Virus record (IMG/VR): IMGVR_UViG_3300035661_000067
Coordinates: 1-61,997 of that record
DNA: 61,997 nt
Source: a virus
Taxonomy: Duplodnaviria > Caudoviricetes
Direction: 5' to 3' (one strand)
Below are positions 3,682 to 27,588 of the stretch, piece after piece. Made by a program: the position numbers and the translations under genes. The first letter of the stretch is position 1. Each line of letters begins with the position of its first letter. The notes beneath the pieces are model-generated. The model ran no database searches. It was not told the origin of the DNA and saw only the letters and a program-made list of their open reading frames with translations.

Positions 3682-3968
3682 TGGTGGAAATAATCGTTCG
3701 ACTGGAAAACTGCGGCACGTGCCACTGGTGGGATCAGGCGACGAGGCTGACGCCCGAGGGTATCGTGCAAAAGACGCCCGAAGGGGCCTGCCACGGGTCG
3801 CCTCCGGCGCTGCTACTGACGGGCGAATGGAAGCTGCCTTTCACGCCGGCTAGCTTCTTCTGCGCGACATGGAAGTCGATCAGCTACCAGACCATCACCC
3901 TTCCTGCCGCGGAGCCCGCGCCCGCCGCGAAGCCCAAGCGGGTGCGCAAACCCCCGGCCCGGAAATGA
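3678..3968 (+). CDS. Hypothetical Cys-rich protein
   Basis: CGTCHWW...GACH...FCATW; ATGA overlaps at both ends. Confidence 0.7.
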   Translation: MMVEIIVRLENCGTCHWWDQATRLTPEGIVQKTPEGACHGSPPALLLTGEWKLPFTPASFFCATWKSISYQTITLPAAEPAPAAKPKRVRKPPARK

Positions 3969-4702
3969 GGCGCTGGGTGATGGTAATGCTGCTGTGCGCC
4001 GGACCCGCCCTAGCTGATGGCCCCTCCACCATCCCGGGGGATCAGTGCGATACGCCTTTCATGGATTTGCCGACCTTCGCCGACCAATTCCCGGGCATCC
4101 CGGCGCAAATCGTTCACGGATGGTATGACACCGCGCTGCGCGAGTGGAGCGCGGCCTGCATCAGCCCCGGCGAGCGGCTGCGCGCCATGGGCTATACCGA
4201 TGAGGAACTGCTGGGCTGGGTCTTCAATGGCGGCGGCCATGTTCCCCCCAAGCCGGAGCCCGTGCCTCTGCCGTGGAGCGGCCTGCTGCTGCTCGTGCCC
4301 CTGTTGATGCTGTGGAGGATAGCGCGCATGCCAGACCTCGCCGGGCGCGGCCCGCTGGGACAGAAGAAGGGCAAGAAGCCCAAGGTCCAGAAGCGGGTGC
4401 TCGACAAGGCCCGCATCGAGGCGATCCACGGCCTGCCATGCGTGGCCTGCCGGGAATATGGAGACAAGCAGGAGACGCCGACCCAGGCGCACCACTGCAT
4501 CAGCGGGCGCTATAGCAGCGTCCGCGCGGGAGACGATGCCGCCATCCCTCTGTGCGAAGACCATCACCAGGGCGATCGGGGCAGCGACAAGGTAGCCATC
4601 CACAAGGACAAGGCGGCATGGGAAGCGAAGTATGGACCCGATACCGGGTTCATCGCCGTCACCGATTGGCTCATTCAGACAGGAGGGAAGCATGGGCTTT
4701 GA
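3965..4702 (+). CDS. Exported VPLPA-CTERM-like protein fused in frame to a Ref/DUF968-like HNH nuclease (internal start 4328)
   Basis: Signal peptide MRRWVMVMLLCAGPALA; PEPVPLPWSGLLLLVPLLMLWRIAR; GGAGG SD plus ATG 4328; CVAC...HH...CEDHH. Confidence 0.7.
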   Translation: MRRWVMVMLLCAGPALADGPSTIPGDQCDTPFMDLPTFADQFPGIPAQIVHGWYDTALREWSAACISPGERLRAMGYTDEELLGWVFNGGGHVPPKPEPVPLPWSGLLLLVPLLMLWRIARMPDLAGRGPLGQKKGKKPKVQKRVLDKARIEAIHGLPCVACREYGDKQETPTQAHHCISGRYSSVRAGDDAAIPLCEDHHQGDRGSDKVAIHKDKAAWEAKYGPDTGFIAVTDWLIQTGGKHGL

Positions 4703-12600: not shown

Positions 12601-15600
12601 GACCTGCTTCTCGCCCTTGACCGCGCGCTCCGCCAGAGAGCCATCGAACAGCTTCTCGAAGATCATGGCTTCATTGATATAGCCGCGGCCCCGCAGCACG
12701 TTGATGATGCCATGAATGATGTTCGTGAACTTGTGGTAGGCGCGGCTCAGCGGCCCGCCCGGGCTGTCCTTGCGGCCGGTAAAGGCCATGTAGCGGTCGG
12801 CGATGACCTCTTCGACCTGCCAGGCATAGGGCAGTCCGTCATATGCCTTCTTGACCCATGCCATGGTTGCCACGTCCATCCGGGCCGCAGATACCAGCGC
12901 CCGCCACTCTTCGGCGGTGAATGCCCCATACTGCGCGCCGTTCCAGATGGTCTGGTCGCGCGCCCAATGCAGCAACTCATGGCGCAGGACTGCCAGCGCC
13001 CCGTGCTTTTGGCCCCATGAGGTCCAGATTTTCCGCTCGGCCCCATAGAACATGCCGTAAATCTCATCACCGGCTTCGGTAATCCAGTGCGGTGCGACAT
13101 TCAGGCGAAGTGCGGCGGCCCCCACGCGCTTCAACTCGGCCAGAAGACGGGCGCGGAGATTGACCTCTTCGGCCTTGGTCATGGGCAACTCGCCCGGAAT
13201 CTCGGCCTCAATAAGCGGGTCGTTTTCTTTGAAGTCGATCCCGCGCTCGGAGAAGTGGTGCGCGCCCCCTTCGCCTTTGCGCGCCTTCGTGCCGGGAGGA
13301 ACGGCCCCGGTGATGGTCCGGGCCTCGTCCTTGTGGGCGCGCGATTCAAAGTTGACGCCGCCGATCGACTGGATCAGCCGCAGAAATTCCTCGAACTTGT
13401 CGGGGTAGATGATCTTCGCCTCGTAGGTCGGCCTCCCAGACCGGCTGTTGAAGTCGCCCACCAGGCTCGTGATCTGCTTGTTCGTCGCATAGGGGCGCCC
13501 GCCCTGCGTGTTCAGGATCACGCTGTAGCGGTTGTTCCGGGCGCCCCAAGAGGACATCGAGTGCGTGATCGTGATGACGGAATCGCTCGTCACCACCATG
13601 GTCTGGACTGGCTTTCCGTCCTTGCCATCCAGGTTCAGGAACGAGATCACCTGTGGGATGGTGCTGAACTGGACCGGCATGTCCCGAAGGGCGGCCTCGG
13701 TATCGAAAGACTTCGGCATGAGGATGCCATCGGACACGGTGCCATCCATGCGGGTGAAGCGCATGATCTGGCCCTTCTCGAAGGCTTTGAAGCCCGCGAC
13801 GAGGTTTCCAGTCAGGATAGTCCGATCCTCGCGCGAAACGGAGGATTGGTTTGCAAAGGCCGCGATGATCGCATGCGGGGAGACGGTCGAAGGCTCGGGC
13901 TGGTAGGCTACATCCTCGGTTTTCCCGGCGATGAGCCGCGACACCGGAACCTCAAACTCCCGCATCGAATCCGCGACGGCTAGCCGCAGGGTCATCTTAG
14001 ACTGTTGGAAGGCGTTACCCTCGGCCCGGCTCATGTCGATGCCCAGCGAGATCGCCGGGATGCGGGTCGTCTTTCCATTACCCTCGTCGCGGATCAGGAA
14101 CGCGCTGGCGCCAGGCTTCCAGGTCAGAGCAAGGCGTTCCTGGTCTTTGAGGATCGAGTGCGCCTCGGCGAGCCGGTCTTCCGCCTTCTTGATGCCAGCA
14201 TTGGCGTCCCGCTTCTGCGCGTCCGTCTTTGCCACCGCGAGGCGGCCTTGCCACATTGCCAGAGAAGCGTTCGCCGTGGCTGTGGCAGCAGGAAACCCGG
14301 CCCGAATGTCGGTCATCTGCTCCAGCGCCCACATCTCGGGCTTCTTCCCGTCGAGGATCTTGGCGATCCGATCCTTGAGTTCCGCCTCGGTGTAGGGCTT
14401 GGCGAGAACGTTCGCTTTGACAATTTCGCTCACGGCCTCGCGCTGGAAGGGCGAGGTGCCGACCGAAGGCGACAGGATGGTCTTCGAGAGGGTTTCAGCT
14501 TCAAGGTTCAGGGTCTTGGCCTCAAGCGTGTTTGTGCCGAGGCGGTCCATTTCCGCGATGATCGCGGTATAGGCGATGTCGAAGTCCTCATAGATTTTCC
14601 GGGCCACGGCATCAGCGACCACAGCGAGGCGACCAGTCAGCCGCGAGGCAAGGCCGGGCTCAGGCTTCTTCCCGTGCGCGAAACCAAGTTCCAGCCCCTG
14701 GTCCACATTCTCGGCGAGCCACTGGTTGACCACGATGTCGCCATAGCGGTTCAGGAAGTCCTTCACGTTCTTCATGGTGACGGCGGAGTCCTTGGCCGCC
14801 GTGGTGTTGGCATTGAGGGATGCCATCTTCCGCATCAGTTGCGCCACCACGCGCTGCTCGATGGCGAGGTCGGACGCCCCGATGGAATAGCGCGGAAGGT
14901 GGATCTGGCCCGTCCGGTGGATGCGGCCGAGCATCTGCATAAACACGTCGATGTTGGCGTCTGGCTGCAGCACCCTCATGTAGCGCGGCTTTCCGTCATT
15001 CCGGGGAGTCGCCGTGGCATGCAGGGAGAACCCAGTCGAGCCCGACGAGTTGATGATGAGCGCATCAAGGGCGCCAGAGTTGTAGCCCGCCATCGCCTTC
15101 GCCTTGAGGGCTTGGCTGTTGGGCATATTTTTCAGCTTGCCGTCATGGATCATCGAGCCGCGCCCGGTGATCTCGCCGACCTTCATGCCCGCCGCTTCCA
15201 GCCCGGCCTTGAGTTTGTCGATCGGGGATGCCGACATGCTGCCCGTGGCGGCGGCCCGGATGGTCCGCTCTGCGTCTTTCAGCGCCCGCAGCGCAGCCTG
15301 CCCGCCATGAGCGACAACCTCGGCGTCGGTGATGTAGTGGTAGGTCACAACCTCCGTCACCTTGTCCTTGAAGCCGATACGGCGCAGGCGCTGCAGGTAG
15401 CGGAGGATGATGTCGTTGAAGGTGATGTTGATCGCATCGCCCGCGCTCAGGCCCAGGTCTTCAGCATACTCGGAAATGATTGAGTCGTTGGTATTCGCCA
15501 GGGCAATGATCGGCTTCTCGCCGTTCTTCCACGCCTCGATCGCATCTTGGATCGCCGCATCAGACTTTGCCGCCAGAAGCACCTGACCCACGATGTTGTG

Positions 15601-18600
15601 GATCATCGAAGAGAAGGTCTTGGAGGTGGCGGACTGCGAGCCTACTGCGCCGCCCTGCCCAACCGCGCCGTGACCGCCCTTCTGGAGGTTCTTGATGTAG
15701 GCAGTCCGCACGTCCTGCATATGCTCTTCATCAGCCATGAAGACTGCCCGCACCGCGCCCAGCGCAGCATGCGTTTCGGCGCTGTTGGTCTTGAGCGTCC
15801 GGGAGTCGATCTTGACGCCGGCATAGGACCGCTCGCGGCGGATATACTGCCCGGCCTCCACCAGAAGGTTTGCGGAGATCTGCTGCAGTGGAACCCCGCC
15901 CTCGCTCAGAAGCCCGGCGAGGTCGCCCGGCACAAGGCTCATATCGGTCTTGAAGTAGAGCGACAGCACGTCAGGGTTCTTGGCAAAGGTCGCCGAGGAA
16001 TAGAGGGTGCCGTGCTTCGACGTCGCCAGCATTTCCCGGAGGATGCGCCCGCGGCTCTTCTTGGTGATGCCGGTTTCCTTGTTGGTCGTCTCGCCGTCGC
16101 CGCCCGCCTCGTGCGCCTCATCCATGATGAACATGGAGTTCTCGGCCAGCCCCATCACCGCCTCTTGGCGCAAGGTCGTGCCGTCACCACCCTCTTGAAG
16201 CTGGCTATAGGTGGTGAATAGGACGGTTTTGCCTTGCGGAAGGCCGAGGCCATCCCGCATATTCTGCATCGCCTTGGCGAGTGCGGGCTTCCCAAGGCTT
16301 TCGACCTTGGGGCTATTCGGGTCGTCCGGGTCCACCCGGAGGATGTTCTTGCCGGTCAGGTCGGTATTGGTGGCGAGGATTTCTGGGATGGAATCGCCCT
16401 CGCCGATGTCCGTCAGGTCGCGGATCATGTCGAGATAGAGCCCGGGGGTCTTGGTAACGAAGATCGGCGTGATGCCGTTCTTGCGCGCATAGCGGATCAT
16501 CCCGGCCACGACGCGGCCCTTCCCGACGCCAGTCTGGTCGCCGATGATGAAGCCCTTGCCGTCCTTCACATTGTCGATCGCCATCGCCAGGGCGTCTATT
16601 TGCTCCGCAGAGAAGCGGCCCTTGCCATCCGGCGCCCCGTTGCCGGTGAGTTCGGCCTCGGAATAGCCCAATTCTTTGGCAACAAAGGTGTCGATCTTGC
16701 CATATTTCTGCTCGATCCGGTCCAGCGCCCGGTTCATCGCATACTGCATATTGACCGGGATCAGCGTTCCGACCGCATAGGCGGCGCCGGAGCGCGGGGT
16801 ATATTGGACCTGGAAGTCCGTCTCCTGCTCGTTGTTCACGCGCTCAGAGGTGTCCCACACGATCTTGGCCGCACCGCTCGCCAGTTCCTGCGCCAGGCGC
16901 GTCAGCTGCCCCATCAGGCGCTGCAGCCCCTCGTTGCTCAGGCCAATGTCCTTGAGGGCCTGCACCAGAGCGCGCATGAGATCCTTGATGCTCGATGCCG
17001 CGTTGCCGAAATGCTTGAGCATCGCGAGGAATTGCGGCTTGGCCCGCTGATAGTCCTCCTCGTCAAACCCAAGGCCGGAGTTCAGCCGGGAGGGGTTGTT
17101 GAGCATGTTCACCAGCCCGGCAAGGCCATCGAGAAAGCCTGCGCCGGTTTCGGTGATGATGTTGCCCGCAGCGTCCCGGATCAGCGGCTTTTGCGCCGGA
17201 TCTTTCGGGGGCTCGTTCGGCTTGTCTTTCAGCTTGTCCTTGGGCGGCTTTTTGTCCTTGGGCTTGTTGGCCTTTTCTTCCTGCTCCGCAACCCAGGCCC
17301 CAGCTTCCTCCAGCAGGGTCGCATTGGAATTGGCGTGATAGCTGGAAGCATCGACCGAGGCGAACATGGCCCAAGGTATGCCTGCCGGGTAAACCCCCAG
17401 CCGAACGGACCCGGGCTGCACGAAAACGCCAGCCTCCACACCCTTCGGCAGCGCGGCGCGCAGAGCTGCCAGCGCGCCGCGCTGTGCCTCGATCAGCTTG
17501 AATCTCTCGTAGCGATTGGCCTTTGCGGCGAGGTCCTTGGGGTCTTGGTCGAGAAGATCCTGATTTCCGCCTAGAGCCTTGGCGGCTTTCTTGGCGCCCG
17601 CATCATCCTTGGAGGTGAACGGGTTGTCGTCCGGCGCAGCCAGGGCATCCGGGGGCGGCGGCTCGTTCGGAGGCGCACCAGCGCCACCGGCCTCCGGCTC
17701 GATGCCGAGGTCAGAGAAGATGTCGTTGAGAAGGTCTTGGGCGTCCTGATCGCTCAGGGCCCCAGAGCCAGGAGGAAGCTGTCCAGCGTCTCCGCCTGCA
17801 GGGCGTCCACCCGTTCCTGCGGATCTGCTTGTGCTGCCAGAGCCTCCGGCTTGATCGCTGCCGGAACCGTCCGGTTGCCCGACATTTCCCGGAGCCTGTC
17901 CAGGCTGTGCCACAGGGTTTCCCCCAGGCCCTGCAGTTCCGCCTCCTTGACCAGCGGAATCCCCAAATCCCGGAGCCGACTGATCGCCTCCTGCGGGTCG
18001 GCCTTCTCCACCAGCCGGTCGATTCGGCTTTCCAGCGCCGCCCTGTGCCGCGCCGGGGTCATCGGCGTTGTCGGGTTGACCAGCACTGTTCCCACTCCCG
18101 CCAAGCTGCCTGCGGGTGTCCAGGCTACGAGGTCCATTCAATCCTCCTTCAAGGTCGGTCCAACTCGTGATGATCGGCGGCGCCTCCGACATCGGAAGCA
18201 CCAGTTTCGATTCGCCGCGGCCCTCGATCACTATCACATCGACGGGCCATTGCGCGCCTTGCCGTGCATAGAGCGATCCAGCGACAGTAAAGTGCCCTAC
18301 AACGTTGTATTGGTCGTAAATCGTGTTCCAAAAGCGCCGCTGCCTGGCCTGGGAATAGGCTTGCGCCCGGTCGCTTCCGGTCAAGGTCGGGCTCTGGCCG
18401 CCGACGATCAGCACTGCGCGCCCATCCTTTTTCATGGACTGCAGCGCCCGCAGGGCGATGGCGTGGTCGATCTCCGTGGTCTGGCCGCCGCCCGCTAGCC
18501 CGGGGGCGTTGAATCGGGTTTCATTCCCCGCATCATCCATCACCTTGCCGAAGGGCGGGTTAGCGATGACGACATCCACAGAGGCCGGGCCCTGATGCTC

Positions 18601-21600
18601 CATCGCATCGCCGACGCTGATCTTGGTCATAAAGCTGCCCAGCGCATAGCTAGCGCGGGCCGCCCGGGCGGGGTCCAGTTCGTTCGCGGTCGTCTTTGCC
18701 GGGTCCGCGCCGATCAAGAGCATGCCGTTGCCCACGGTCGGCTCATAGACGGTTGTGTCCTCAGTGATGCCGGCCAGTTGCGAGGCCAGATAGGCCAGTG
18801 GCGCCGGGGTCGAATATGCCTGATTCCGCAGGCTCGTGGAGGTGCGTTGGGCCAGAAGCGGCTGGCGCGCATAGAGATCCACCAGCGCGGTATAGGTTTC
18901 GGCCGGGCTCTTGCCTTGGCTGATGATGTGGCGCGCAGTGATGACCACGGCGGCCTCAAGCGCCTCTTCCACCAGCTTGTATTCCTCGTCGGCGAGGGGC
19001 CGATCCAGAGCCTCTGCCGCCACCTTCCGGGCGACGAGGATGTTGTGGAAACCGTCACCATCGACGAGGCGCTTGGAGAAGGTGTCGATCAGCGTCTGGA
19101 CCATCTTCGGGACGGTCGGGTTGGCATCCGCAGGCTTGGGTGCAACTGCCTCCAGGAGGGCCTGCTCGGCCTCCATTTGCGCGATCTTCCACTTGATGTA
19201 GGGGTAGGTCACTTTCTTCGGGAAAGCAGCCGTCCGGGTGTTATAGCTGTTCCCCTTCGGCCCCTTGAACGTGACGATGGCCTTGTTGTTGCCGTCCGGG
19301 AGCAGCCGCCAGCCCTCGTCCAGCTTGTCGTGGATGAACTCCTGCGGGGTCTGCATCTTCCCATCGACACGGATGCCATAGAGCAGGGCGCCATCAAACT
19401 CATAAGACATCGGGCCATAGATCGCAGTGAAGGCGTCATAATCGGCCTTTAGGGCGGCCTTCTTGTCTTCGGCGGCCCGTGCTTCCTCCATGACCCGCTT
19501 GGTATCGGCCTCAAATTTGGCCTGATCCAGCGCAGCCTGGGGCGACATCAGATAGGCATCGGTTTCCCGCTTCCCATCGGCAATGTCGTCTTCCATGACC
19601 TCGGGCTTGCCGCCAGCGGTTGAGACGCCAACCATCATCGGCAGCATCGCGCCACGGTCCTCGATCGACACGATCTTCCGCTCGCCCTTGGGCGAGGCCC
19701 AGGTATCGCCGATCTTCATGCCGGTTAGGGTTTCGGTGCGCTTGGGCATGTCCGGCGCGGCCTTACCGTCCGGGTTCAGGAGTTTGCCGACCTCGCGCAT
19801 GACCTCGCGCGCCGCGGCGATGGTGCCGCTCTTCTGCAGTTCCTTGGCCGCGGGGTAGGCGCCGGACGCGGTGTCGATGTTGACGAGATAGTCATTCGAC
19901 ATCCCATAGGTCTGCAGGGCGAGCGTGAAGATCGCCTCGAAGGCCCGCGCCGTCTCTTCGATGGTCGTGCCCCAATAGGCGACCTTCCGATATGTATCGA
20001 AGGCGATATTGCGCTGGTGCCACGGTCCCTGTTTCAGGGTCAGGGCGAAGTGCTGCAGCGCCTTCGCCAGCCCATCGCCCAGGCCCTTGTTGTTGGTCTC
20101 GCCCCGGTCGGAGGCAAAGTCGGTGCGCTGCTTATCCTTGGGCTTGGCCGCCGCCGATACGCCGCCTTTGCTGGCCGCCTCGCGCGCCAGATAGTTGTCG
20201 AGAGCATGCACCCACTCATGGGCCAGCGAGCCCGAGCCGTTGCCCGCCGTGAGGTTGATGACGACCTCAAGCTGCTCATAGTGGGCCGCCGCCGCGCCCC
20301 TGCCACCCCGGCCCCGCGATGCGAAGCCGATTCCGAGGGTCTTGCCATCAACAGGAAGAACGGCAATCGCCTGCGAGGGGATGCCCAGCATGCCGGCCAG
20401 ATCCATGAAGGCATCATAGGCCCGGTTCAGGTCCAACTGCCGCTGGTCGTTGTTCCGGGATGCCCCAAACTCAACGCGCAGACCGAAGGCTTTCTCAAAG
20501 TCAGCGGTCGAGACATTACCCTCGCGGCGCTTCATGCCGCTGCGCTCGCGGTTCTCCAGCCGGTGTTCGCGCGGCCCGACACGGAGCGCCCGCACCTTGT
20601 TCCGAAGTTCCTCTTCGTTGGCGGTGATGTAGTCCCGGGCGGCCTGATAGGTTTCAAACCCGCCGACGATAATCGGGGAGTTCTCGTCGTTCGAAGACCA
20701 GATGCCATAGGTCTTTGTGGTGGAAATGCCCTTGGCGTCCCTCTCGAAGGTTTCAGACTTCACTGAGAGGCGGATCTCGCGCTCCTTTGGCACGGTCGTA
20801 TCGCCGCCTTCGCCTTCGGGCTTCATCGCCTCATCGAGCGCCTGTTGGTCAATGATCTTCCGCACCTCAGCGAGGGCACGGGCCTGCACCTCGGCCATCG
20901 TGTCGATGTAGAGCCCGCGCCCGTTGCTGTAGTGCGGCCCATTGGCGAGGAAATAGGTGTCCGGTTCGCGGGCGCGGACCTTGGTTTTCCCGTCATCGCT
21001 GGGAACGAGGACATAAGACTTCGTGATCGGGTCCATCTTATACTGGATCACCCGATTCAGCTGGTAGGTCGCAAGCAACTCCTGCTCTTGCGGGGTTGCG
21101 CCATCGCGGACCAGGCCAAAGCTGAGAAGGCCGGAGCCAGTGTTGTCCTCGTAGTCCTTGATATGATTGCGGATGTCGGCATCGAGATCGGGGCCATCCC
21201 AGACTTGCCGGGTGCCATCCAAAAGATCCTTCGCCAGCTTCCGCGCGGCGCTGACATGGTTGACCCACCGAGCCAGCTTGTATTTGTTCGTCCGGCCCTG
21301 CGGTTTTAGCGGGATCTGGCGACGGATCGAGAGGATCACCGCGATGGTGTCATGTATGGCCCCGCCTTGGGCCAGCGCCGCTGCATCAATCGGCGGGAAG
21401 GTCTTGCCCAGCGGGTTCGTGGCGATGTCGAGATCTGCCCCGATCGCCCGGACGAACTGCCCGAAGAGGTGCTTGCGAGCGCCCTCGATCTTGCCGCCGA
21501 AGTCATCAATCTTCTCCGGGGGCTCTTCGGGCTTCGGGTTCGCGTCTTGCGGCGCATCAACCGCGGGTGGGTCGATGATTACGGGCGGTTTTTCAGGCTC

Positions 21601-24600
21601 GCCGCCTTCTGGCGCAACTGCCGGACCTCCGCTGGGTTTTTCTCGGTTTCCGCCATCGCCCGAAGTGTTTCCGCCATCGCCTTGCGGTGCAGAGGGGCCG
21701 CCTGTGGGCTTGTCGAAGAGCCCGCCTTGTCCTTTTGTGCCATCTTGGGCTCCTTTTGCCATTTTCAGCACATCGCGCGGGTTCGCGGTATGCCCGAACA
21801 TATCGGCCTCGGCCTGGGTCTTGCCCATTTCCTGAACGTAGAAGGCCAGCGCCGATCCGATGCGCTCGCGGCTGGCAGGCTTGGTCCATTTCACGACATC
21901 GTTGAAGAGCAGGGATAGGAAGTCCTTGGCCTCATCCGACACGGTGCCGCCCGCGGCGAACATATCGGTCTGGTTAACGAAATCCGTGATGGGCCGGCCA
22001 GCGCGCCGCGCCCGGTCCACAAGCTGCACGGCCTCCATCAGGGCCGGGGTCATATCGGCATGGGGCGAGATCACCCCTTCCGCTGCCTGCGCCCGCATCT
22101 TGGCCCACTCGCCCGCAACATCGGTCAGCGCGCCGCCGATGGCCTTGATGTTGGTGTCCGATGCCTCCATCAGCGTCTTGATGAGGTCCGGGCTTCCATA
22201 GGCTTTTGCCAGCAGGGCCGCTTGGATGCGGAGAAGGCCAGCCTGGCTGATCGAGCCATCCGAGCCGATCATCCCGATCGCATCGTTCTCGCCGATCACG
22301 TCCTTGATGATCTGCCGCACGAAGTCCCGGTTGCCCGCGGAATCGAGATCGCCGCCACGATAGAGGGCGAGGTGCGCGGCCTGGATCTGCCCGGCATCCG
22401 CCATCGCGGTTTCCGAGACGGTCATGCCAAGGTTCGTGCGCTCGTTGTATTCCTTGGTCGCCGCGATGCGGGTCGCCGTGTCCATTTCCGTTGTGCGGAG
22501 GCGGATCAGCACCGGGTTCTTCATCGACTTGTGGACCGGATAGCCCTTGGCCTTGAGCCATGCGCGATAGGCTTCGGCGCTCTTGCCGTTCTCGACATAG
22601 GCGCGGCGTAGGGCCATCATGCGCCCGTTGCCGCTTTCGACCACGCCATCCTTGGAAACGATCGGGGCGCCGGGGCCAGCTTCGGGGCCTTCGCCCATGA
22701 ACTCTGGGTTCAGGTTCGTTGCCATGCGCTGCACCTGGAGCATGGCAGAGGGGTGCGATCGGTCGCGCGGCTGTAGTTCGGACGGATAGGCTTTGTTGAC
22801 CCGGCCATCATCGTCGTTCGAGATCACCAGATCATCGAGCGACACCACGCCATAATCGACCTTGACCACGCGCCCCTGCGGCGTCGTCACCTTGTCGTGG
22901 CTGTGAAGGTTGAAGTGCTGGATGCCCGGCTTCTTGGCCGCATCGCCCTCGGTGTAGTTGCTGGAAATCGGCTTCTTCCATGCCGGGGTGTGCGGCAGCA
23001 GGGCGCGCAACTCCGCAACTTCCATGGTCTTGATACCGCCGACACGGGCCTCGCCCTTGCCATCGCTGAACCCGGCCTCATAGACCTTGAGTGCTTCGCT
23101 GGCGCTGTCGAACCCCATCAGGATCTTGTGTTCATCGAACTTGCCGGTCGCCAGATCGTTCTGATCGACAACGACAACCAGCTTCGATTCGGGGTTGGGG
23201 CCGACATAGACATCGACGTGGTCTTTGTCTTTGCCAACGGTGCCCTTGATGTAGCCATAGTCGGCAGCGAGCGTGACGCTCCATTCCTTGCCGTCCGGCG
23301 AGGTGCCCTTCCGGGTGCCGGCCTTCTCGGTTTCGATGCTGATGTCCAGCCCGTGAACCTTGATATGCTTCATCTGGTAGTTGCCCGCCTCGGCCTGTGC
23401 CGGGGTCGGGTTTGGGTTCGCGTGATTGTCGTCGGCGGCAGGCTTCTCGCCCATGCGCTCGCGCGCCTGGGGGTCGTTTGCCATGAAGAAGGCATAGCTG
23501 AACCCAAAAGGCGTGGTGGAGCGCGCCTCTTTGCCCAGAGGATCGGTGCCGCGCAGCTTGGACTGCATCTTGGACCCTTCAACCGGGTCCACATTGGCGG
23601 TCGGCAGATCCGTCTGGAACATGCCGTAAAGCTGGGTGCGCTTGGTGTAGGGGTCGCCGAAGTTGTGCGGGTGGAAGCGCACGGTCGGGGCAGGCATGCC
23701 CGCCTTTTCCTCGATGCGGCCGACAGGGTTTTCAAGGACATGGAAGCCGGTCGGGTTCGATTCCTCGATGATCCGGCGTGTCTCGTTCACCAGCATGATG
23801 TTGTATTCCAGAGGCGACTTCGCCCCGGATGCCAGCGCAGCCTCGCCGAAGACCTTCACCAGGGCCTCGGGGGTCTGGATGTCGTGCAGCGGCTCCCACC
23901 AGCGCGCGCCCGCGCCGGAGAAGGTGGTGCAGGGTGTGGCCGCCAGAACACCATAGACCTCGTAGCCTTCGGCCCGGCGCTCCGCAATTTGGTCGTTGAT
24001 CCACTGATCGAGCCCGATCTTCGAGCCGATCTTGATGTCGTGCTGGATCACCTGATACCCAGCGTCCCGCCACGGCTGCGACCACTGGCCGCTGTAGTCG
24101 AACAGGCTGATGATGATCTTGCCGGCGTTCTTGCCGGTCTTCCCGATGTCCTTGGCGACCTGCTTCCATGCCGCCAGTTTGGCGTCGGCCTCGGCCTGCG
24201 GGATATAGCCATCCTTGGCCGCCTTGGCCTCGATGCTGACCGTTCCCTTGCGTTCCGGGAACACGTCCTTGGGGTCCATGTGCGGCACATCGGCCTCGGC
24301 CATGGGCTCGCCTTTGGGCGCACCGTTCACCGTGTCGGTGTTGACGCCGTTCGACTCGAAGTTCTGGAGGAAGTCCATGGCATCGGCGACCGCAGAGCCA
24401 TCGCTGTCAAACTCGCCCGTGCCCTCGTCAAACTTGGGCTCCGGCAGATCCCCGGTCTTCGCCGCGCGGGCCTCTTCGATCAGGCGCTTGGCGATGTCTT
24501 CGGCTTCCCGGATCAGGGTCGCCTCTTGGTTCCACTCCTTGGTGGTCTTGTGCTGTCCCTGGGCATCGAAGTTGTCGATCGCGTGGCCCTTGGAGCGCAT

Positions 24601-27588
24601 CTGCGCCTCGGCGCGGCGCGTGGCGGCATCCAACTCGCCCACCAGGTGGCCGAGGGTGCTGTCATTGCGGTATTTGGCGAGCGTCTTGCGCTCTTGGTCC
24701 GTGAGGGCATGCTCCAGCCGGTAGGGCTTGTCGGCCTCGGCGGGTGGGACGGGCGCTTTCGGCGGGGCCTTCGGGCCGCCTTCGCCCACCGGGGGCGCGG
24801 CGGGAGGCGGCGGCGTGTTGGTCTGGGGCTTCTTCGGGGCTTCCGCAGCGGGGGGCGGGGTTTCGGGCTCCAGATAGGGCTCGACCTGCTTGAGAAGGTT
24901 CGCGGCGGCTTTGCGAACCCGGTCGCCAGCGATGGAATCGGCGGGATGGATGGTCAGGTTGCGACGAAGGCCCTCGGCGGCCGACTTGACCGCCTCTTCC
25001 GGGGTGGAGAAATACTGCCGGTGCGCGCTTCCGCCAGAGCCTCCGCTGTGGCCGGGCAGATCCCAATTCAGGTTTGAGGTCCAGCCCTTGCCTTCATGGT
25101 GGATGGGCGTGAGGGTGACGTGCGCCTTGCCTGCCTTGTCTGCAGTAAACTTGATCGGGGCCACGTTCTCCGGCGTCGGCGCGGCGATGGTCGCCGGGTC
25201 GGGGCGCTTGGCGCTCTGCTGATCTGGGGGCAGCTTGTCATGGGCATCCATCACCAGCTTTGCCAGAGCCTCGGGCGGCATGGTGGTCAACTGCTCATGC
25301 GTGACCGAGATATGGGTTTTCCCGCGGCCCGCCGTGGCAATGATCGCGCCGATTTGGTCCGTGGAATCGCGCCCGCCCGAAACCTGCCAGTCCTCGGGGA
25401 GGTGCTTCGCCAGGTTGCGAATCCCAACGGCATGGGGCTTGGTGTCGTCGGGCTTGATGTAGTGGTCGGCGCCAAAACCGGGCTTTACTGCCGGTGCTGC
25501 AGGCTCGCCTCCGGGACCGGCGTCAGGAGCAGGCTGGCCTGCAGGATTGCCCTGGTCACTCTGCGGCGCGGCAGGTCCGCCAGTGTCGGGTTGACCCGTG
25601 CTGCCTTGATCCACCGAAGCACCGCCTTGCGGCGCTTGCGGCTTAGGTGCCCCATCGCCTCCAACAGGAGCAGGGCCTGCTTCATTTCCCGGATCTTGTG
25701 TTTCATCAGGAGCCTTCGCGGGTTTCGGGGGGGACTCGGTCTGAGGCTTGACGTTGGTGAAGTCCGGCTTTGGCCGAGAGGTCGAGCCAGAGCCCGGCTT
25801 CGGGGGCAGGGGTTGGACCATGAAGCCGCCATCGACAGCGATGATCTGGAAGGCATCGCCAGTCAGGCCATTGGCCTTAGCGCCCTTAGCCGCCTGCTTG
25901 GCAGTCTCGAAGGGTATGCCGCCCTTCTTGCCGAACGGGGGCGGGGGCTCGGGGGCCTTGGTTTCGCCCGGGGCGGAGCCCGGAACGTGGAATGTCATGG
26001 TCTGCATGTCGGCATGCGAGATGATGCTGTCCTTGCCATCATCGAACCGGAATTGCGGGCCGTGGGGCGTGTTCTTCACGAACTGGACGTTGACGTTCGT
26101 GCCATCAGGCATACGCGCGGTGAATCGCTCGCCGGTCTTGGCGTCATCCCCCGTTTCGGGGTGCTTGAAGTTCATGTCGGGCGCAGCACCAGCCGCGCCG
26201 CCCATGGGGCCAGATCCAGCGCCGGGGCCTGCGGACGGGCCTGCGGACGGGCCTGCGCCAGGCGCAGCGCCGGGGCCGCCAGAAGGTTGCGCGCCGGGGG
26301 TAGAGGGGCTACCACCCGGCAGCGCGCCCCCAGGTGCAGCGGGGGGAGGTGCCGTGCCGGGGGGAGGGGTTTGGGGTTGCGCTTCGCCCTTGCGGGTCAG
26401 GGCGCTCACGCCAGCACCAAGGCCGGAAATGCCAACCGTGGCAAGCATGGTCTGGACGATGGTATCCCGGATTGCCGCAGGCTGTTCCGCGAGGAAGTCC
26501 TTCATGGGCTTGTCGGGGTTCAGCGAAGCATAGGCATTCATGTTCTGGAACAGGGTCGTGGCGACCTCTGTCGGCACTTCCGTCATAAGCTGGTGCATCA
26601 GGATCTTGCCAAAGCCAGACCCTTCCACGATGTCGCCAAGCAGCTTGTGGACCGGGATTTTCTCGAACAGGCCCTCAGCCAGTGCATCTACGCCGCCATA
26701 GAGCAGCGATGCCGCATCAGACTTGCCCGCCTTCTCGGCCTCGCCGACAGATTGGCCGCCTTGTTGGATCATCCCGGGGGCAAGAAAGGTCGCAGCGACG
26801 GCCGGCGTGGCCGCGCCGCCAGACAGGATCGAGGCAAGGATGCCGGGTGCCATGGTCCCGATCGACTGCGCCGCACCCTGAACTTGCTCGCCGATCCATG
26901 TGTCGGGCTTGCCAGCGACCCACTCCTTGGTCCTGCCGGCACCTGCGGCCTGCTTCTGCAGCCATGTCTTGGCGTCGTCCAGCCCTGCAAGGCCGGCCAT
27001 CGCACCCATGATATTCCACGAGGCTTCGCTGAACGCAGGGGCTGCCGATGCGATGCCGCGCGGGACCGTCCCCAACGCATCCATCGCATCGCCCACAAAG
27101 CCCTTCGGGGGCGGGGGCGGGCGACCGCCTGGGTTCAGTTCATCGGCCAGTTGGTAAGCGCGCGACATGATCTGCGAGGTCAGCGATGGATCTGCGTTCG
27201 GGCCGAGAACCTTGGCAATGGCCTCTTCGGGTTTCATCCCGCCCTTGAGAAGCGGAGAAAGGACCGATGCAGCATGCGTAGCTGCCTGCAGGGCTTCATC
27301 CTTGTTCGATGCCCCGCCGACCTCGCCGATGGACATCAGGAGGTTGATCGGAACGCCGCTCTGGCTGCTGAGTGCGCCCATAGCGTTCAGGTGGGGGTCG
27401 TTCTGGGGCATGCCTGTCGCTGCAGCACCGCCCAGCGATGAAGGGCCGGTCGGCTGCGGCTGTTGCGCGCTCGGAGTGGTCTGGGGGGCTTGGGGGGGGG
27501 CAACACCGTTGCGGGCGTCGATCTTGGCCTGCTCTTCGGCAAGCGCCGCATCCACCGGATTGCGGCTCGTGTAATCAGTCCCAGCCAC
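9685..27588 (-). CDS. Giant DarB-like polyvalent virion protein (5967 aa)
   Basis: Motifs N to C: hydrophobic helices; C5-MTase (SLFDYSG, TPC, ENP; ~24120-23480); InPase (PTPAQAEAGNY, DYGYI..T.GKDKDHVDV); ddrB-ParB (YP.ELQPRDR, GAPIV...ESGNGR); LPD5 (IDDFGGKIEGARK); LPD1 zincin (AHEWVHALD); N6-MTase (QAYSTP, EPTVGNG, NPPF); strawberry-notch SF2 helicase (DQTGVGKGR, DEAH, QMLGRIHRTGQ); HELLH peptidase; PLxRFG. Confidence 0.9.
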   Translation of the reverse strand: MAGTDYTSRNPVDAALAEEQAKIDARNGVAPPQAPQTTPSAQQPQPTGPSSLGGAAATGMPQNDPHLNAMGALSSQSGVPINLLMSIGEVGGASNKDEALQAATHAASVLSPLLKGGMKPEEAIAKVLGPNADPSLTSQIMSRAYQLADELNPGGRPPPPPKGFVGDAMDALGTVPRGIASAAPAFSEASWNIMGAMAGLAGLDDAKTWLQKQAAGAGRTKEWVAGKPDTWIGEQVQGAAQSIGTMAPGILASILSGGAATPAVAATFLAPGMIQQGGQSVGEAEKAGKSDAASLLYGGVDALAEGLFEKIPVHKLLGDIVEGSGFGKILMHQLMTEVPTEVATTLFQNMNAYASLNPDKPMKDFLAEQPAAIRDTIVQTMLATVGISGLGAGVSALTRKGEAQPQTPPPGTAPPPAAPGGALPGGSPSTPGAQPSGGPGAAPGAGPSAGPSAGPGAGSGPMGGAAGAAPDMNFKHPETGDDAKTGERFTARMPDGTNVNVQFVKNTPHGPQFRFDDGKDSIISHADMQTMTFHVPGSAPGETKAPEPPPPFGKKGGIPFETAKQAAKGAKANGLTGDAFQIIAVDGGFMVQPLPPKPGSGSTSRPKPDFTNVKPQTESPPKPAKAPDETQDPGNEAGPAPVGGDGAPKPQAPQGGASVDQGSTGQPDTGGPAAPQSDQGNPAGQPAPDAGPGGEPAAPAVKPGFGADHYIKPDDTKPHAVGIRNLAKHLPEDWQVSGGRDSTDQIGAIIATAGRGKTHISVTHEQLTTMPPEALAKLVMDAHDKLPPDQQSAKRPDPATIAAPTPENVAPIKFTADKAGKAHVTLTPIHHEGKGWTSNLNWDLPGHSGGSGGSAHRQYFSTPEEAVKSAAEGLRRNLTIHPADSIAGDRVRKAAANLLKQVEPYLEPETPPPAAEAPKKPQTNTPPPPAAPPVGEGGPKAPPKAPVPPAEADKPYRLEHALTDQERKTLAKYRNDSTLGHLVGELDAATRRAEAQMRSKGHAIDNFDAQGQHKTTKEWNQEATLIREAEDIAKRLIEEARAAKTGDLPEPKFDEGTGEFDSDGSAVADAMDFLQNFESNGVNTDTVNGAPKGEPMAEADVPHMDPKDVFPERKGTVSIEAKAAKDGYIPQAEADAKLAAWKQVAKDIGKTGKNAGKIIISLFDYSGQWSQPWRDAGYQVIQHDIKIGSKIGLDQWINDQIAERRAEGYEVYGVLAATPCTTFSGAGARWWEPLHDIQTPEALVKVFGEAALASGAKSPLEYNIMLVNETRRIIEESNPTGFHVLENPVGRIEEKAGMPAPTVRFHPHNFGDPYTKRTQLYGMFQTDLPTANVDPVEGSKMQSKLRGTDPLGKEARSTTPFGFSYAFFMANDPQARERMGEKPAADDNHANPNPTPAQAEAGNYQMKHIKVHGLDISIETEKAGTRKGTSPDGKEWSVTLAADYGYIKGTVGKDKDHVDVYVGPNPESKLVVVVDQNDLATGKFDEHKILMGFDSASEALKVYEAGFSDGKGEARVGGIKTMEVAELRALLPHTPAWKKPISSNYTEGDAAKKPGIQHFNLHSHDKVTTPQGRVVKVDYGVVSLDDLVISNDDDGRVNKAYPSELQPRDRSHPSAMLQVQRMATNLNPEFMGEGPEAGPGAPIVSKDGVVESGNGRMMALRRAYVENGKSAEAYRAWLKAKGYPVHKSMKNPVLIRLRTTEMDTATRIAATKEYNERTNLGMTVSETAMADAGQIQAAHLALYRGGDLDSAGNRDFVRQIIKDVIGENDAIGMIGSDGSISQAGLLRIQAALLAKAYGSPDLIKTLMEASDTNIKAIGGALTDVAGEWAKMRAQAAEGVISPHADMTPALMEAVQLVDRARRAGRPITDFVNQTDMFAAGGTVSDEAKDFLSLLFNDVVKWTKPASRERIGSALAFYVQEMGKTQAEADMFGHTANPRDVLKMAKGAQDGTKGQGGLFDKPTGGPSAPQGDGGNTSGDGGNREKPSGGPAVAPEGGEPEKPPVIIDPPAVDAPQDANPKPEEPPEKIDDFGGKIEGARKHLFGQFVRAIGADLDIATNPLGKTFPPIDAAALAQGGAIHDTIAVILSIRRQIPLKPQGRTNKYKLARWVNHVSAARKLAKDLLDGTRQVWDGPDLDADIRNHIKDYEDNTGSGLLSFGLVRDGATPQEQELLATYQLNRVIQYKMDPITKSYVLVPSDDGKTKVRAREPDTYFLANGPHYSNGRGLYIDTMAEVQARALAEVRKIIDQQALDEAMKPEGEGGDTTVPKEREIRLSVKSETFERDAKGISTTKTYGIWSSNDENSPIIVGGFETYQAARDYITANEEELRNKVRALRVGPREHRLENRERSGMKRREGNVSTADFEKAFGLRVEFGASRNNDQRQLDLNRAYDAFMDLAGMLGIPSQAIAVLPVDGKTLGIGFASRGRGGRGAAAAHYEQLEVVINLTAGNGSGSLAHEWVHALDNYLAREAASKGGVSAAAKPKDKQRTDFASDRGETNNKGLGDGLAKALQHFALTLKQGPWHQRNIAFDTYRKVAYWGTTIEETARAFEAIFTLALQTYGMSNDYLVNIDTASGAYPAAKELQKSGTIAAAREVMREVGKLLNPDGKAAPDMPKRTETLTGMKIGDTWASPKGERKIVSIEDRGAMLPMMVGVSTAGGKPEVMEDDIADGKRETDAYLMSPQAALDQAKFEADTKRVMEEARAAEDKKAALKADYDAFTAIYGPMSYEFDGALLYGIRVDGKMQTPQEFIHDKLDEGWRLLPDGNNKAIVTFKGPKGNSYNTRTAAFPKKVTYPYIKWKIAQMEAEQALLEAVAPKPADANPTVPKMVQTLIDTFSKRLVDGDGFHNILVARKVAAEALDRPLADEEYKLVEEALEAAVVITARHIISQGKSPAETYTALVDLYARQPLLAQRTSTSLRNQAYSTPAPLAYLASQLAGITEDTTVYEPTVGNGMLLIGADPAKTTANELDPARAARASYALGSFMTKISVGDAMEHQGPASVDVVIANPPFGKVMDDAGNETRFNAPGLAGGGQTTEIDHAIALRALQSMKKDGRAVLIVGGQSPTLTGSDRAQAYSQARQRRFWNTIYDQYNVVGHFTVAGSLYARQGAQWPVDVIVIEGRGESKLVLPMSEAPPIITSWTDLEGGLNGPRSLDTRRQLGGSGNSAGQPDNADDPGAAQGGAGKPNRPAGGEGRPAGGDQSAPGFGDSAGQGGGTAGPGGNPVAQPGQAPGNVGQPDGSGSDQAGGSGSTSRSAGTGGRPAGGDAGQLPPGSGALSDQDAQDLLNDIFSDLGIEPEAGGAGAPPNEPPPPDALAAPDDNPFTSKDDAGAKKAAKALGGNQDLLDQDPKDLAAKANRYERFKLIEAQRGALAALRAALPKGVEAGVFVQPGSVRLGVYPAGIPWAMFASVDASSYHANSNATLLEEAGAWVAEQEEKANKPKDKKPPKDKLKDKPNEPPKDPAQKPLIRDAAGNIITETGAGFLDGLAGLVNMLNNPSRLNSGLGFDEEDYQRAKPQFLAMLKHFGNAASSIKDLMRALVQALKDIGLSNEGLQRLMGQLTRLAQELASGAAKIVWDTSERVNNEQETDFQVQYTPRSGAAYAVGTLIPVNMQYAMNRALDRIEQKYGKIDTFVAKELGYSEAELTGNGAPDGKGRFSAEQIDALAMAIDNVKDGKGFIIGDQTGVGKGRVVAGMIRYARKNGITPIFVTKTPGLYLDMIRDLTDIGEGDSIPEILATNTDLTGKNILRVDPDDPNSPKVESLGKPALAKAMQNMRDGLGLPQGKTVLFTTYSQLQEGGDGTTLRQEAVMGLAENSMFIMDEAHEAGGDGETTNKETGITKKSRGRILREMLATSKHGTLYSSATFAKNPDVLSLYFKTDMSLVPGDLAGLLSEGGVPLQQISANLLVEAGQYIRRERSYAGVKIDSRTLKTNSAETHAALGAVRAVFMADEEHMQDVRTAYIKNLQKGGHGAVGQGGAVGSQSATSKTFSSMIHNIVGQVLLAAKSDAAIQDAIEAWKNGEKPIIALANTNDSIISEYAEDLGLSAGDAINITFNDIILRYLQRLRRIGFKDKVTEVVTYHYITDAEVVAHGGQAALRALKDAERTIRAAATGSMSASPIDKLKAGLEAAGMKVGEITGRGSMIHDGKLKNMPNSQALKAKAMAGYNSGALDALIINSSGSTGFSLHATATPRNDGKPRYMRVLQPDANIDVFMQMLGRIHRTGQIHLPRYSIGASDLAIEQRVVAQLMRKMASLNANTTAAKDSAVTMKNVKDFLNRYGDIVVNQWLAENVDQGLELGFAHGKKPEPGLASRLTGRLAVVADAVARKIYEDFDIAYTAIIAEMDRLGTNTLEAKTLNLEAETLSKTILSPSVGTSPFQREAVSEIVKANVLAKPYTEAELKDRIAKILDGKKPEMWALEQMTDIRAGFPAATATANASLAMWQGRLAVAKTDAQKRDANAGIKKAEDRLAEAHSILKDQERLALTWKPGASAFLIRDEGNGKTTRIPAISLGIDMSRAEGNAFQQSKMTLRLAVADSMREFEVPVSRLIAGKTEDVAYQPEPSTVSPHAIIAAFANQSSVSREDRTILTGNLVAGFKAFEKGQIMRFTRMDGTVSDGILMPKSFDTEAALRDMPVQFSTIPQVISFLNLDGKDGKPVQTMVVTSDSVITITHSMSSWGARNNRYSVILNTQGGRPYATNKQITSLVGDFNSRSGRPTYEAKIIYPDKFEEFLRLIQSIGGVNFESRAHKDEARTITGAVPPGTKARKGEGGAHHFSERGIDFKENDPLIEAEIPGELPMTKAEEVNLRARLLAELKRVGAAALRLNVAPHWITEAGDEIYGMFYGAERKIWTSWGQKHGALAVLRHELLHWARDQTIWNGAQYGAFTAEEWRALVSAARMDVATMAWVKKAYDGLPYAWQVEEVIADRYMAFTGRKDSPGGPLSRAYHKFTNIIHGIINVLRGRGYINEAMIFEKLFDGSLAERAVKGEKQVFGYGFLSEESVASAMRMRRPITQEYERTMLSKLLTQAMSLGSSTLLSAVPGRALFTELGRKMPSAENYQKLKDKMDKLRSEWWTRTDEVARRWRYIMSQNKNANVKLMDLMHEATIAGQDPSQPYEPKASPEDYARVQNQTGTPGQMAAATERVQADRAAKARYDALVPKYRALPGAFKHMFNKVRDEYVAMSQAYERAIIANIAKAMNISLRSAERAHADEMRRIQDDGLIGGERAQAMDRANARLDKARRNHGDGARARAFALRKMFESNRVEKPYFPLTRFGKFFVTTRNAQGKVTAFNMFESVWARDKFANATAAETGIKPQTGVIGESEIRGMVDPTFVSDIEQILAGVDTPKVVMDAIWQRWLETLPELSIRRNRLHRNATAGFSSDAFRAFGKAAFHGSHQLAKLSYALDLQDALVEAEREAKNSSEPTRNGLIVQEMMRRHQGTMAPKGSALSQLATSAVFLYFMAFSPGTAIVNISQTTIVGIPILGSMPGANMRQASAQIARASLDFTRGKGHAVNSSRLTDDEKTAMEFAYASGLIDKSRAHDLAGIEAHGTEFRDWRSKIMAAASLMLHHTERMNREITFLAAYRMARINAAPAVGANGGPTVRGNHDAAVNAAMSATWKTHFDYQNDARPRLTQGNVARVVTAMKNFQINMLWRLARDLHQMTRGESPEARKEARRTFFGISASLMLHAGISGVWMFGAACMIWGLLTGAPQSEVKDHFKSDVVSVFGEKMGAAVFYGIPQAVTGLSLSSRIGMPDLWFRDDSRPAEGEALYQQWLAQSVGAAPTLVENMLMGAQDISNGDYERGIEKMLPVAARNVMKAARYAMEGATTKNGDPLVDTVTTPQVIVQALGFTPAEIAEQNELNSLAYNKQQEIQDEKSAIVKELATAVLSHAAITPEIRAKVDAFNAAHPSYPITSEGIVASAKLRAKHHANNQGGAELIPGLDAEIRAGLSPQIMD
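17754..18137 (-). CDS. Nested +1-frame gene inside the giant gene (127 aa, helical)
   Basis: AAGGAGG-5nt-ATG; GC3-rich codons in this frame; protein-like amphipathic sequence. Confidence 0.75.
   Translation of the reverse strand: MDLVAWTPAGSLAGVGTVLVNPTTPMTPARHRAALESRIDRLVEKADPQEAISRLRDLGIPLVKEAELQGLGETLWHSLDRLREMSGNRTVPAAIKPEALAAQADPQERVDALQAETLDSFLLALGP
21579..21743 (-). CDS. Nested +1-frame gene inside the giant gene (54 aa)
   Basis: AAAAGGAG-6nt-ATG; MAQKDKAGSSTSPQAAPLHRKAMAETLRAMAETEKNPAEVRQLRQKAASLKNRP; absent from the ORF track, translated by hand. Confidence 0.65.
   Translation of the reverse strand: MAQKDKAGSSTSPQAAPLHRKAMAETLRAMAETEKNPAEVRQLRQKAASLKNRP
25485..25706 (-). CDS. Nested +1-frame gene inside the giant gene (73 aa, basic)
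   Basis: MKHKIREMKQALLLLEAMGHLSRKRRKAVLRWIK...; codons AAG/ATC/CTG/GAG/GCG typical of real genes here; weak GAAGG SD. Confidence 0.6.
   Translation of the reverse strand: MKHKIREMKQALLLLEAMGHLSRKRRKAVLRWIKAARVNPTLADLPRRRVTRAILQASLLLTPVPEASLQHRQ

Follow-up and report, generated by a model that had tools for sequence, protein, structure and literature searches.

Virus record IMGVR_UViG_3300035661_000067, which was analysed over its whole length of 61,997 bases and is referred to below as the window, contains on its minus strand a giant polyvalent-protein gene (positions 9685–27588). It is quite likely that some of the linkers between the domains of this gene are dual-coding and that small proteins would be made there from internal starts one base out of step with the 5967-amino-acid (aa) open reading frame (ORF) of the giant protein, the host frame or f0. 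Three such nested ORFs, designated A, B and C, were studied together with homologous loci. At the level of sequence comparison, dual coding is shown to be under selection in two families, the C family and the B-like family. ORF C itself very probably specifies a real, conserved and folded protein of a previously undescribed family.

Results

Position, start signals and codon signature of the nested ORFs

All three ORFs lie wholly inside the giant gene, on the same strand and in its +1 frame. A first-pass annotation of the window had placed same-strand ORFs of 127, 54 and 73 aa at these sites, and both the ORF list and a frame check bear this out. ORF C (17754–18137, minus strand, ATG start, 127 aa, isoelectric point (pI) 4.97) covers the linker that follows an N6-adenine methylase domain (giant aa 2880–3150; 18139–18951, minus strand), which was assigned by Pfam N6_Mtase as well as by homologous loci, and starts at the end of this domain. 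Its ATG is directly preceded by a +1-frame TGA and stands behind the Shine-Dalgarno (SD)-like sequence GAAGGAGG (18143–18150, minus strand). ORF B (21579–21743, minus strand, ATG start, 54 aa, pI 10.6) covers the linker after the ddrB-ParB-like region (PF18763; giant aa 1563–1945; 21754–22902, minus strand) and is preceded by the SD-like AAGGAG (21750–21755, minus strand) within AAAGGAG. For both C and B the distance between SD and ATG is 5–7 nucleotides (nt). ORF A (25485–25706, minus strand, 73 aa, pI 12.0), for which the evidence is one of codon usage, represents the internal-ATG form, starting at 25706, of a longer ORF (25485–25856, 123 aa). The first-pass annotation had noted near-perfect SD sites for two of the ORFs; the sites of C and B are strong, and A is preceded by the weak SD-like GAAGG (25713–25717, minus strand).

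The three linkers are set apart by their codon usage. The G+C content at third codon positions (GC3) of the giant frame, 0.79 over the whole gene, falls to 0.43, 0.51 and 0.49 within ORFs A, B and C, whereas the +1 frame displays values of 0.86, 0.75 and 0.80. This is the GC3 frame switch that had been predicted for a per-frame computation along the gene. When GC3 was followed in sliding windows of 40 codons with a step of 20, values below 0.62 were obtained in 14 of 297 windows, and all 14 fall in the linkers of the three ORFs. Other low-complexity linkers indeed show normal GC3, in agreement with the first-pass annotation (0.85–0.88 at aa 901–960 and 0.72–0.78 at aa 3281–3340). Moreover, the G+C content of about 0.8/0.7/0.45 at codon positions 1/2/3 of the overlapped linkers is the pattern of an ordinary gene of this phage read one base off. 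The codon adaptation index (CAI) of the giant frame in these linkers is 0.37–0.44 versus 0.72 overall, and codon adaptation better than that of the giant frame is restricted to four out of 81 alternative-frame open stretches, which are the three nested ORFs plus the linker at aa 398–471.

The +1 coding quality of A, B and C in the window exceeds chance. In the underlying resampling the giant protein was held fixed and the synonymous codons were redrawn (2000 draws per ORF). In bits per codon, the +1 coding score is 0.24 for A (resampled mean −0.35), 0.22 for B (−0.51) and 0.16 for C (−0.20), and for none of the three was the observed score reached by any of the 2000 draws. For two control linkers, the observed score was reached in 340 and 44 of 2000 draws.

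Conservation of ORF C, openness of both frames and selection on the +1 frame

Searches of viral contigs and genomes with the methylase domain yielded 83 loci, which together with the window give a sample of 84 entries; in two cases, a pair of loci represents one and the same contig. The arrangement is also present in prophage-like regions of two named isolates, Rubellimicrobium thermophilum DSM 16684 (L078) and Roseovarius nitratireducens TFZ (L080). An ORF of 90–210 aa in the +1 frame, beginning with ATG as required by the extraction rule for all C-family ORFs, is present at the end of the methylase domain in 82 of the 84 entries, and the giant frame runs open through it in all 82. A core of the SD motif of 4 nt precedes the start in 54 and of 5 nt in 40 of the 66 distinct family members. 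The two entries without the ORF are L028, where the locus ends at this point, and L055. L055 is the one informative locus with a methylase homologue in which a C-like +1 ORF could not be recognised; here (position 3717 onward), the +1 frame is Arg/Pro-rich and of low complexity. A non-overlapped arrangement was considered for L070 and rejected, since the stop of the giant frame is found upstream of the ORF in this locus.

The 66 distinct C peptides align as one family. Its members contain amphipathic helices and, at the N-terminus, a WxP motif whose W is present in 56 of 66; many of them also have SSLD as a C-terminal tail. A profile built from 32 peptides of the more distant loci recovers 31 of the 34 others and detects the window's C with an expectation value (E) of 1.1e-12. 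In the reverse test, a profile trained on the other 34 peptides recovers 14 of the 32. The family is kept across loci whose overlap has a G+C content between 0.45 and 0.71.

For the C family, though not for the window alone, both frames are open beyond what composition accounts for. Shuffling of the giant-frame codons left the +1 frame open in a median of 1.5% of trials, and shuffling of the +1 codons left the giant frame open in a median of 4.8%, compared to 66 of 66 members observed in each case. Therefore, the openness of one frame is not simply a consequence of the other frame. In the third frame, all 66 members are interrupted by stops.

The differences between loci also follow the +1 frame. 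At +1 codon positions 1/2/3 of the C overlap, they amount to 0.072/0.065/0.140 per site in 11 pairs with an identity of at least 80% and to 0.263/0.149/0.341 in 24 pairs with 60–80% identity; all substitution counts given here were taken from alignments built from +1 peptides, which favours the +1 frame and hardly affects the pairs of at least 80% identity. It is therefore the third codon position of the giant frame that changes most slowly. In the neighbouring methylase domain, which served as control, giant-frame positions 1/2/3 show the normal order with values of 0.057/0.032/0.229 and 0.279/0.206/0.599. Measured against this control, the embedded frame of C is under purifying selection.

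In every one of the 64 loci whose sequence extends far enough beyond C, the same helicase region follows. Most relatives reach it 1–14 residues after the C stop, and in 50 of the 64 loci helicase-region homology sets in no more than 15 residues after it, so that the C ORF fills the space between methylase and helicase almost exactly.

In the window, about 300 additional residues (giant aa 3279–3580; 16849–17753, minus strand) separate the C stop from the Sno/SNF2-type helicase region (giant aa 3581–4295; 14704–16848, minus strand; Pfam AAA_34, Helicase_C_4 and ResIII). Parts of this extra segment are also present in L001, L004, L008, L010, L015 and L037. Within the helicase region of L002, a low-GC3 insertion of 345 aa (giant residues ~1904–2248) splits the homology between window aa 3692 and 3693; judged by its motifs it is a candidate intein with a homing-endonuclease part.

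Predicted fold and relatives of the C protein

An AlphaFold2 prediction based on a 61-row alignment of the +1 translations resulted in a model composed of two short strands and eight helices, with a predicted local distance difference test (pLDDT) score of 89.7 and a predicted template modelling (pTM) score of 0.82. The family is acidic, with a median pI of 4.67 compared to 4.97 for the window's C, and was in this respect compared with DNA mimics of the Ocr/ArdA type, which are small and very acidic; the fold searches gave no match of any kind (Foldseek best E 2.0, VIA best Z 3.2).

A profile search of 1.84 billion representative proteins yielded 699 matches at E ≤ 1e-3, of which 192 have E ≤ 1e-10. 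Among the longer matches, which are known here as proteins, the C-like domain is fused in frame to T5orf172/GIY-YIG (P0014), a fusion represented by a named protein of Piscinibacter defluvii, to ankyrin (P0027) and to DUF3293 (P0064); WP_128000194.1 is an example of the fused proteins. Further in-frame architectures comprise several putative N-terminal membrane anchors, an unknown C-terminal domain of 200 aa and a tandem pair (P0035). In P0052, P0054, P0058, P0076 and P0138, the C-like domain is located behind N-terminal stretches that resemble membrane helices by eye. Together with the tandem pair, these membrane-helix-like proteins hint at a docking or recognition role.

A word-seeded search did not return any free-standing homologue of C, which reflects a sensitivity limit because the full profile search found 699. 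A DUF3618 assignment for C was rejected, the Pfam row being below its cut-off, and the ESM Atlas gave no usable match for A or C. At the DNA level, the C region shows no similarity to GenBank phages. The protein-level search of GenBank phages retrieved three records, all of them distant, whose giant coding sequences (CDSs) contain neither a nested annotation nor a C-like ORF. Among the distant methylase homologues (28–34% identity), L105 (PQ571277.1) and L106 (CAKLQH020000019.1) are annotated with one giant CDS each and have no C-like ORF. Because of these two loci, the nested C gene seems to occur only in the methylase subfamily closer to the window, from 36% identity upwards. C-like matches occur in just four of 401 alphaproteobacterial genomes, and no match was obtained when viral sequences were scanned with P0037 or P0004, two of the fused proteins.

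ORF B and the family located after the ParB domain

ORF B is likely to be a member of a second +1 family, which is situated after the ParB domain. Homologues of this domain were found in nine of 50 related virus records and at 59 metagenome loci, and the set used for B comprises 60 entries, the loci being ascertained through ParB. A +1 ORF of 45–110 aa with an ATG located 0–110 nt after the ParB match is present in 37 of the 60 entries; some of the remaining ones have extended or non-ATG starts and about ten are without an ORF. The 32 distinct B-like peptides constitute a basic two-helix family. Differences at +1 positions 1/2/3 are 0.075/0.077/0.186 in 14 pairs and 0.185/0.191/0.362 in six pairs, and amino acid identity is 0.87 in the +1 frame versus 0.77 in the giant frame, revealing purifying selection on the embedded frame of the B-like family. 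A B-like profile matches 38 database proteins, mostly from short contigs.

The window's B starts 10 nt beyond the end of ParB homology, behind AAAGGAG, with the same position, reading frame and class of length as in the family, and shares 34% identity with L108. A comparison with the L085–L089 subgroup alone was not significant, and this assignment was dropped. At 36 ParB-ascertained loci, the part of the giant protein that follows the B-like ORF forms 16 clusters unrelated to one another, and it can therefore be concluded that the small B-like ORF goes with the ParB module. This lends some support to the first-pass proposal that a nested gene travels with its adjacent module.

In L108 and L109 (~3783–4170, plus strand), a second +1 ORF of 129 aa with a strong SD follows directly after the B-like ORF. 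Its start overlaps the stop of the first ORF (TGAATG), giving two consecutive hidden ORFs per linker. On the 1722-nt contig L148, the B-like +1 ORF extends 258 aa into unrelated enzyme-like sequence and the giant frame stops; L148 is probably a chimeric low-coverage assembly.

ORF A and the linker at aa 398–471

Among the three nested ORFs, A combines the strongest +1 coding score with the lowest host-frame GC3. With regard to its start, the log-likelihood ratio is 0.24 for the 73-codon form (25706) versus −0.17 for the 123-codon form (25856). Judged by codon signature, the chances that ORF A is a nested gene are even, and it may be either a gene or a relic. Distant homologues of the N-terminal domain of the giant protein contain nothing A-like.

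The Gly/Pro/Ala linker at aa 398–471 (26176–26397, minus strand) carries a partial +1 codon signal: its CAI is higher in the +1 frame, and the observed score was reached by none of 2000 resamplings. Due to the lack of an ATG and the low complexity of the +1 translation, this linker was rejected as a fourth gene and is not counted as one; it is possibly the decayed relic of a captured gene.

Discussion

Probable dual coding and the observations that weigh against it

Taken together, the giant gene may be envisaged as follows. Ribosomes in the giant frame would give rise to flexible, hydrophobic-poor linkers, and other ribosomes would start at the internal SD and ATG, one base out of step, and produce separate small proteins, so that the same DNA would give a floppy joint of the giant protein and a small protein missed by annotation. 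From the signals at these sites, we infer that initiation at the internal starts is independent of the giant frame. The small genes would be the older reading, absorbed as linkers when neighbouring module genes fused through them in the other frame. With respect to function, each small protein might serve the module that it follows, C the DarB-like methylase–helicase unit and B the ParB unit. That the small proteins act as accessory or docking subunits of a virion-delivered protein is a tentative suggestion, which we consider rather doubtful. The first-pass claim that the nested genes are real is strongly upheld for C by comparative data, predicted structure and profile searches; for B it stands at the level of the family, to which the window's own B fits weakly.

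Several observations speak against dual coding. In the resampling, 1892 of 2000 synonymous draws for A, 1946 for B and 1725 for C left the +1 frame without a stop (86–97%); codons with T at position 2 are nearly absent from the linkers. A stop in the +1 frame can only arise where the giant frame has T at this position, and hydrophobic or aromatic residues make up 4–7% of the linkers. Likewise, 65% of giant-frame codon-order shuffles leave the window's C open, and the giant gene contains 34 open stretches of at least 60 codons in the +1 frame and 32 in the +2 frame. Given the 34 open +1 stretches and the resampling, an ORF bounded by a linker is no evidence in itself in this GC-rich window, and the start/stop-bounded pattern on which the first-pass annotation had relied turned out to be largely a composition effect in the window. 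Searches of Pfam, PHROGs and NCBIfam gave no match for A, B or C and hence no function from family membership, and a fold match for C is absent (best E of 2.0 with Foldseek against the PDB and of 1.1 against BFVD, best Z of 3.2 in a wide VIA-align search). The ~130-aa 'solo' C-like proteins of the databases may come from loci that are overlapped in the same way and where the gene caller selected this frame, and the loci compared are not phylogenetically independent. Scored with a family profile from which it had been left out, the window's B takes the first place among 94, but with an E of 0.05 (best decoy 1.1), and its model of two helices reaches a pLDDT of just 64.8. For ORF A, which is preceded by a weak SD only, tblastn against all 165 loci detected no homologue, and homologues of its flanking domains were found neither in a viral scan nor in the 50 related virus records, a protein search (756–2155 aa) or a metagenome scan.

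Origin of the nested genes and alternative explanations

Capture of older small genes as inter-domain linkers is the origin to which we lean, with moderate confidence. In the case of C it is favoured because the +1 frame has typical codons and a fold, the host frame is of low complexity and the domain is found in ordinary genes. The earlier suggestion that the polyprotein grew by reading through small genes gains some support in the same way, and from the close fit of C into the inter-domain space. A different sequence of events, in which the fusion of methylase and helicase and its linker came first and the small proteins arose de novo by overprinting and spread later, has a smaller yet appreciable probability. 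A methylase and a helicase in one chain represent an old architecture, as seen in P1 DarB, and no unfused arrangement of methylase, C and helicase was found among the 82 loci, all of which are already overlapped, a result that counts for de novo origin and against capture. By the usual criteria for overlapping genes, however, the frame with genome-typical codon usage is the older one. Here this is the +1 frame with its compact predicted fold, while the giant frame is of low complexity with the poor codon adaptation described above, and the C-like domain is met in many unrelated in-frame architectures.

It is improbable that the +1 frames are relics, i.e. former genes captured as linkers which are now untranslated in this phage and whose codon signature is a fading imprint. 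According to the resampling, an intact ORF in the window is no sign of maintenance, and both the decayed appearance of the aa 398–471 linker and the weak SD of A would fit such a history. Relics are at variance, however, with the family-wide purifying selection on the +1 frame of C and B-like ORFs, with the retention of SD and ATG in most loci (in the window, C and B have strong ones), and with the score of the window's C against the profile of distant members.

Less probable again is a programmed frameshift, by which ribosomes would slip into the +1 frame at the end of the methylase and yield a truncated polyprotein ending in the C domain, with no free small protein. The C-terminal position of the C-like domain in multidomain proteins elsewhere would agree with this, and SD-like sequences can stimulate frameshifting, as in prfB and dnaX. 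However, a +1 stop is located no more than ten codons upstream of the ATG in 48 of 66 C-family members and directly adjacent to it in 24, so that a shift would be needed at or after the ATG. In 51 of 66, no more than 20 nt separate the start from the point where the methylase match ends, and the SD spacing is typical of initiation; a slippery motif was not noticed, none having been searched for. The start signals of C thus appear to favour independent initiation over frameshifting.

A mere by-product of composition, in which Gly/Pro/Ala/Asp-rich linkers (codon position 1 G/C-rich, position 2 without T) render the +1 frame open and GC3-rich with no nested protein, would explain the stop-free resamplings, the 34 open stretches and the shuffles of the window's C, but is highly improbable in view of the giant-frame GC3 collapse restricted to these linkers (the similar linker at aa 901–960 being normal), the coding scores never reached in 2000 draws, the conservation of the C family over a wide range of G+C content, the fast evolution of the +1 third position, and the predicted fold and in-frame fused homologues of C; it is refuted for C and a live option for A alone.

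Comparison with known systems

Among known systems, dual coding in the giant gene finds a close formal parallel in Rz/Rz1 of phage lambda. There, a small gene with its own start signals lies completely inside a larger gene of the same strand, in its +1 frame, and each of the two products has a function. The likeness consists in a small +1 gene inside a larger same-strand gene with start signals of its own, here in the form of sequence signals. Rz is small and has two domains; the host in the present case is a multi-enzyme protein of ~6000 aa with two to three probable embedded genes at linkers, whose function is putative. In the overprinted genes of small viruses such as phiX174 and RNA viruses, both frames are selected and one product is disordered or of low complexity, the new frame usually encoding a small accessory protein. 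The present case differs from this classic overprinting in that the disordered reading is the large host protein, whereas the embedded frame looks older and folded. A possible functional analogy for C is provided by phage P1, whose DarB is a virion-delivered methylase–helicase antirestriction protein that needs small Dar accessory proteins. The likeness would be one of role; similarity of C to a Dar protein in sequence or fold was not found, no search aimed at it having been made, and the accessory genes of P1 are separately encoded while C is embedded.

The main text of the study that described polyvalent proteins (Iyer et al. 2017, PMC5512222) contains neither 'overlap' nor 'frameshift', and its single 'reading frame' passage concerns neighbouring small ORFs; nested out-of-frame linker genes, present here, are not described in that main text. 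Throughout the literature searched, supplements aside, no description of nested genes in polyvalent-protein linkers was found, in line with the first-pass annotation, which knew of none. The C-like domain family, despite its hundreds of members, stayed unnamed because gene callers forbid long same-strand overlaps and the GenBank relatives annotate the giant CDS only.

The arrangement would represent a clear case from a bacterial virus in which the host protein is the disordered reading and the embedded gene the folded one. It points to a growth route for multidomain giants, namely fusion through an intervening gene without losing that gene, and provides candidates that can be tested as accessory factors of antirestriction proteins delivered with the virion. 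Moreover, local collapse of host-frame GC3 in combination with a positive alternative-frame coding score provides a signature that can be searched for in single genomes. On a more speculative note, giant polyvalent genes might in general have been assembled by swallowing small accessory genes, each module having a hidden out-of-frame partner and the C-like domain docking further effectors; we hold this to be conceivable, though on balance unlikely. If true, a layer of small proteins absent from annotation would lie hidden in the polyvalent genes of phages and plasmids at large.

Domain content and surroundings of the giant gene

The giant gene closes the virion structural module of the phage. 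Located upstream on the same minus strand are the terminase, portal, major head, internal virion and tail-fibre genes. Pfam searches with the giant protein revealed 11 families, including InPase, ddrB-ParB, LPD5, LPD1, N6_Mtase, AAA_34/Helicase_C_4, ResIII and LPD39. Several unrelated effector and enzyme domains are thus united in one phage polypeptide, which defines a polyvalent protein. With its InPase, ddrB-ParB, LPD1/5/39, N6-methylase and Sno/SNF2 helicase domains, the protein is a textbook example of the class as presented in the main text of Iyer et al. (2017, PMC5512222).

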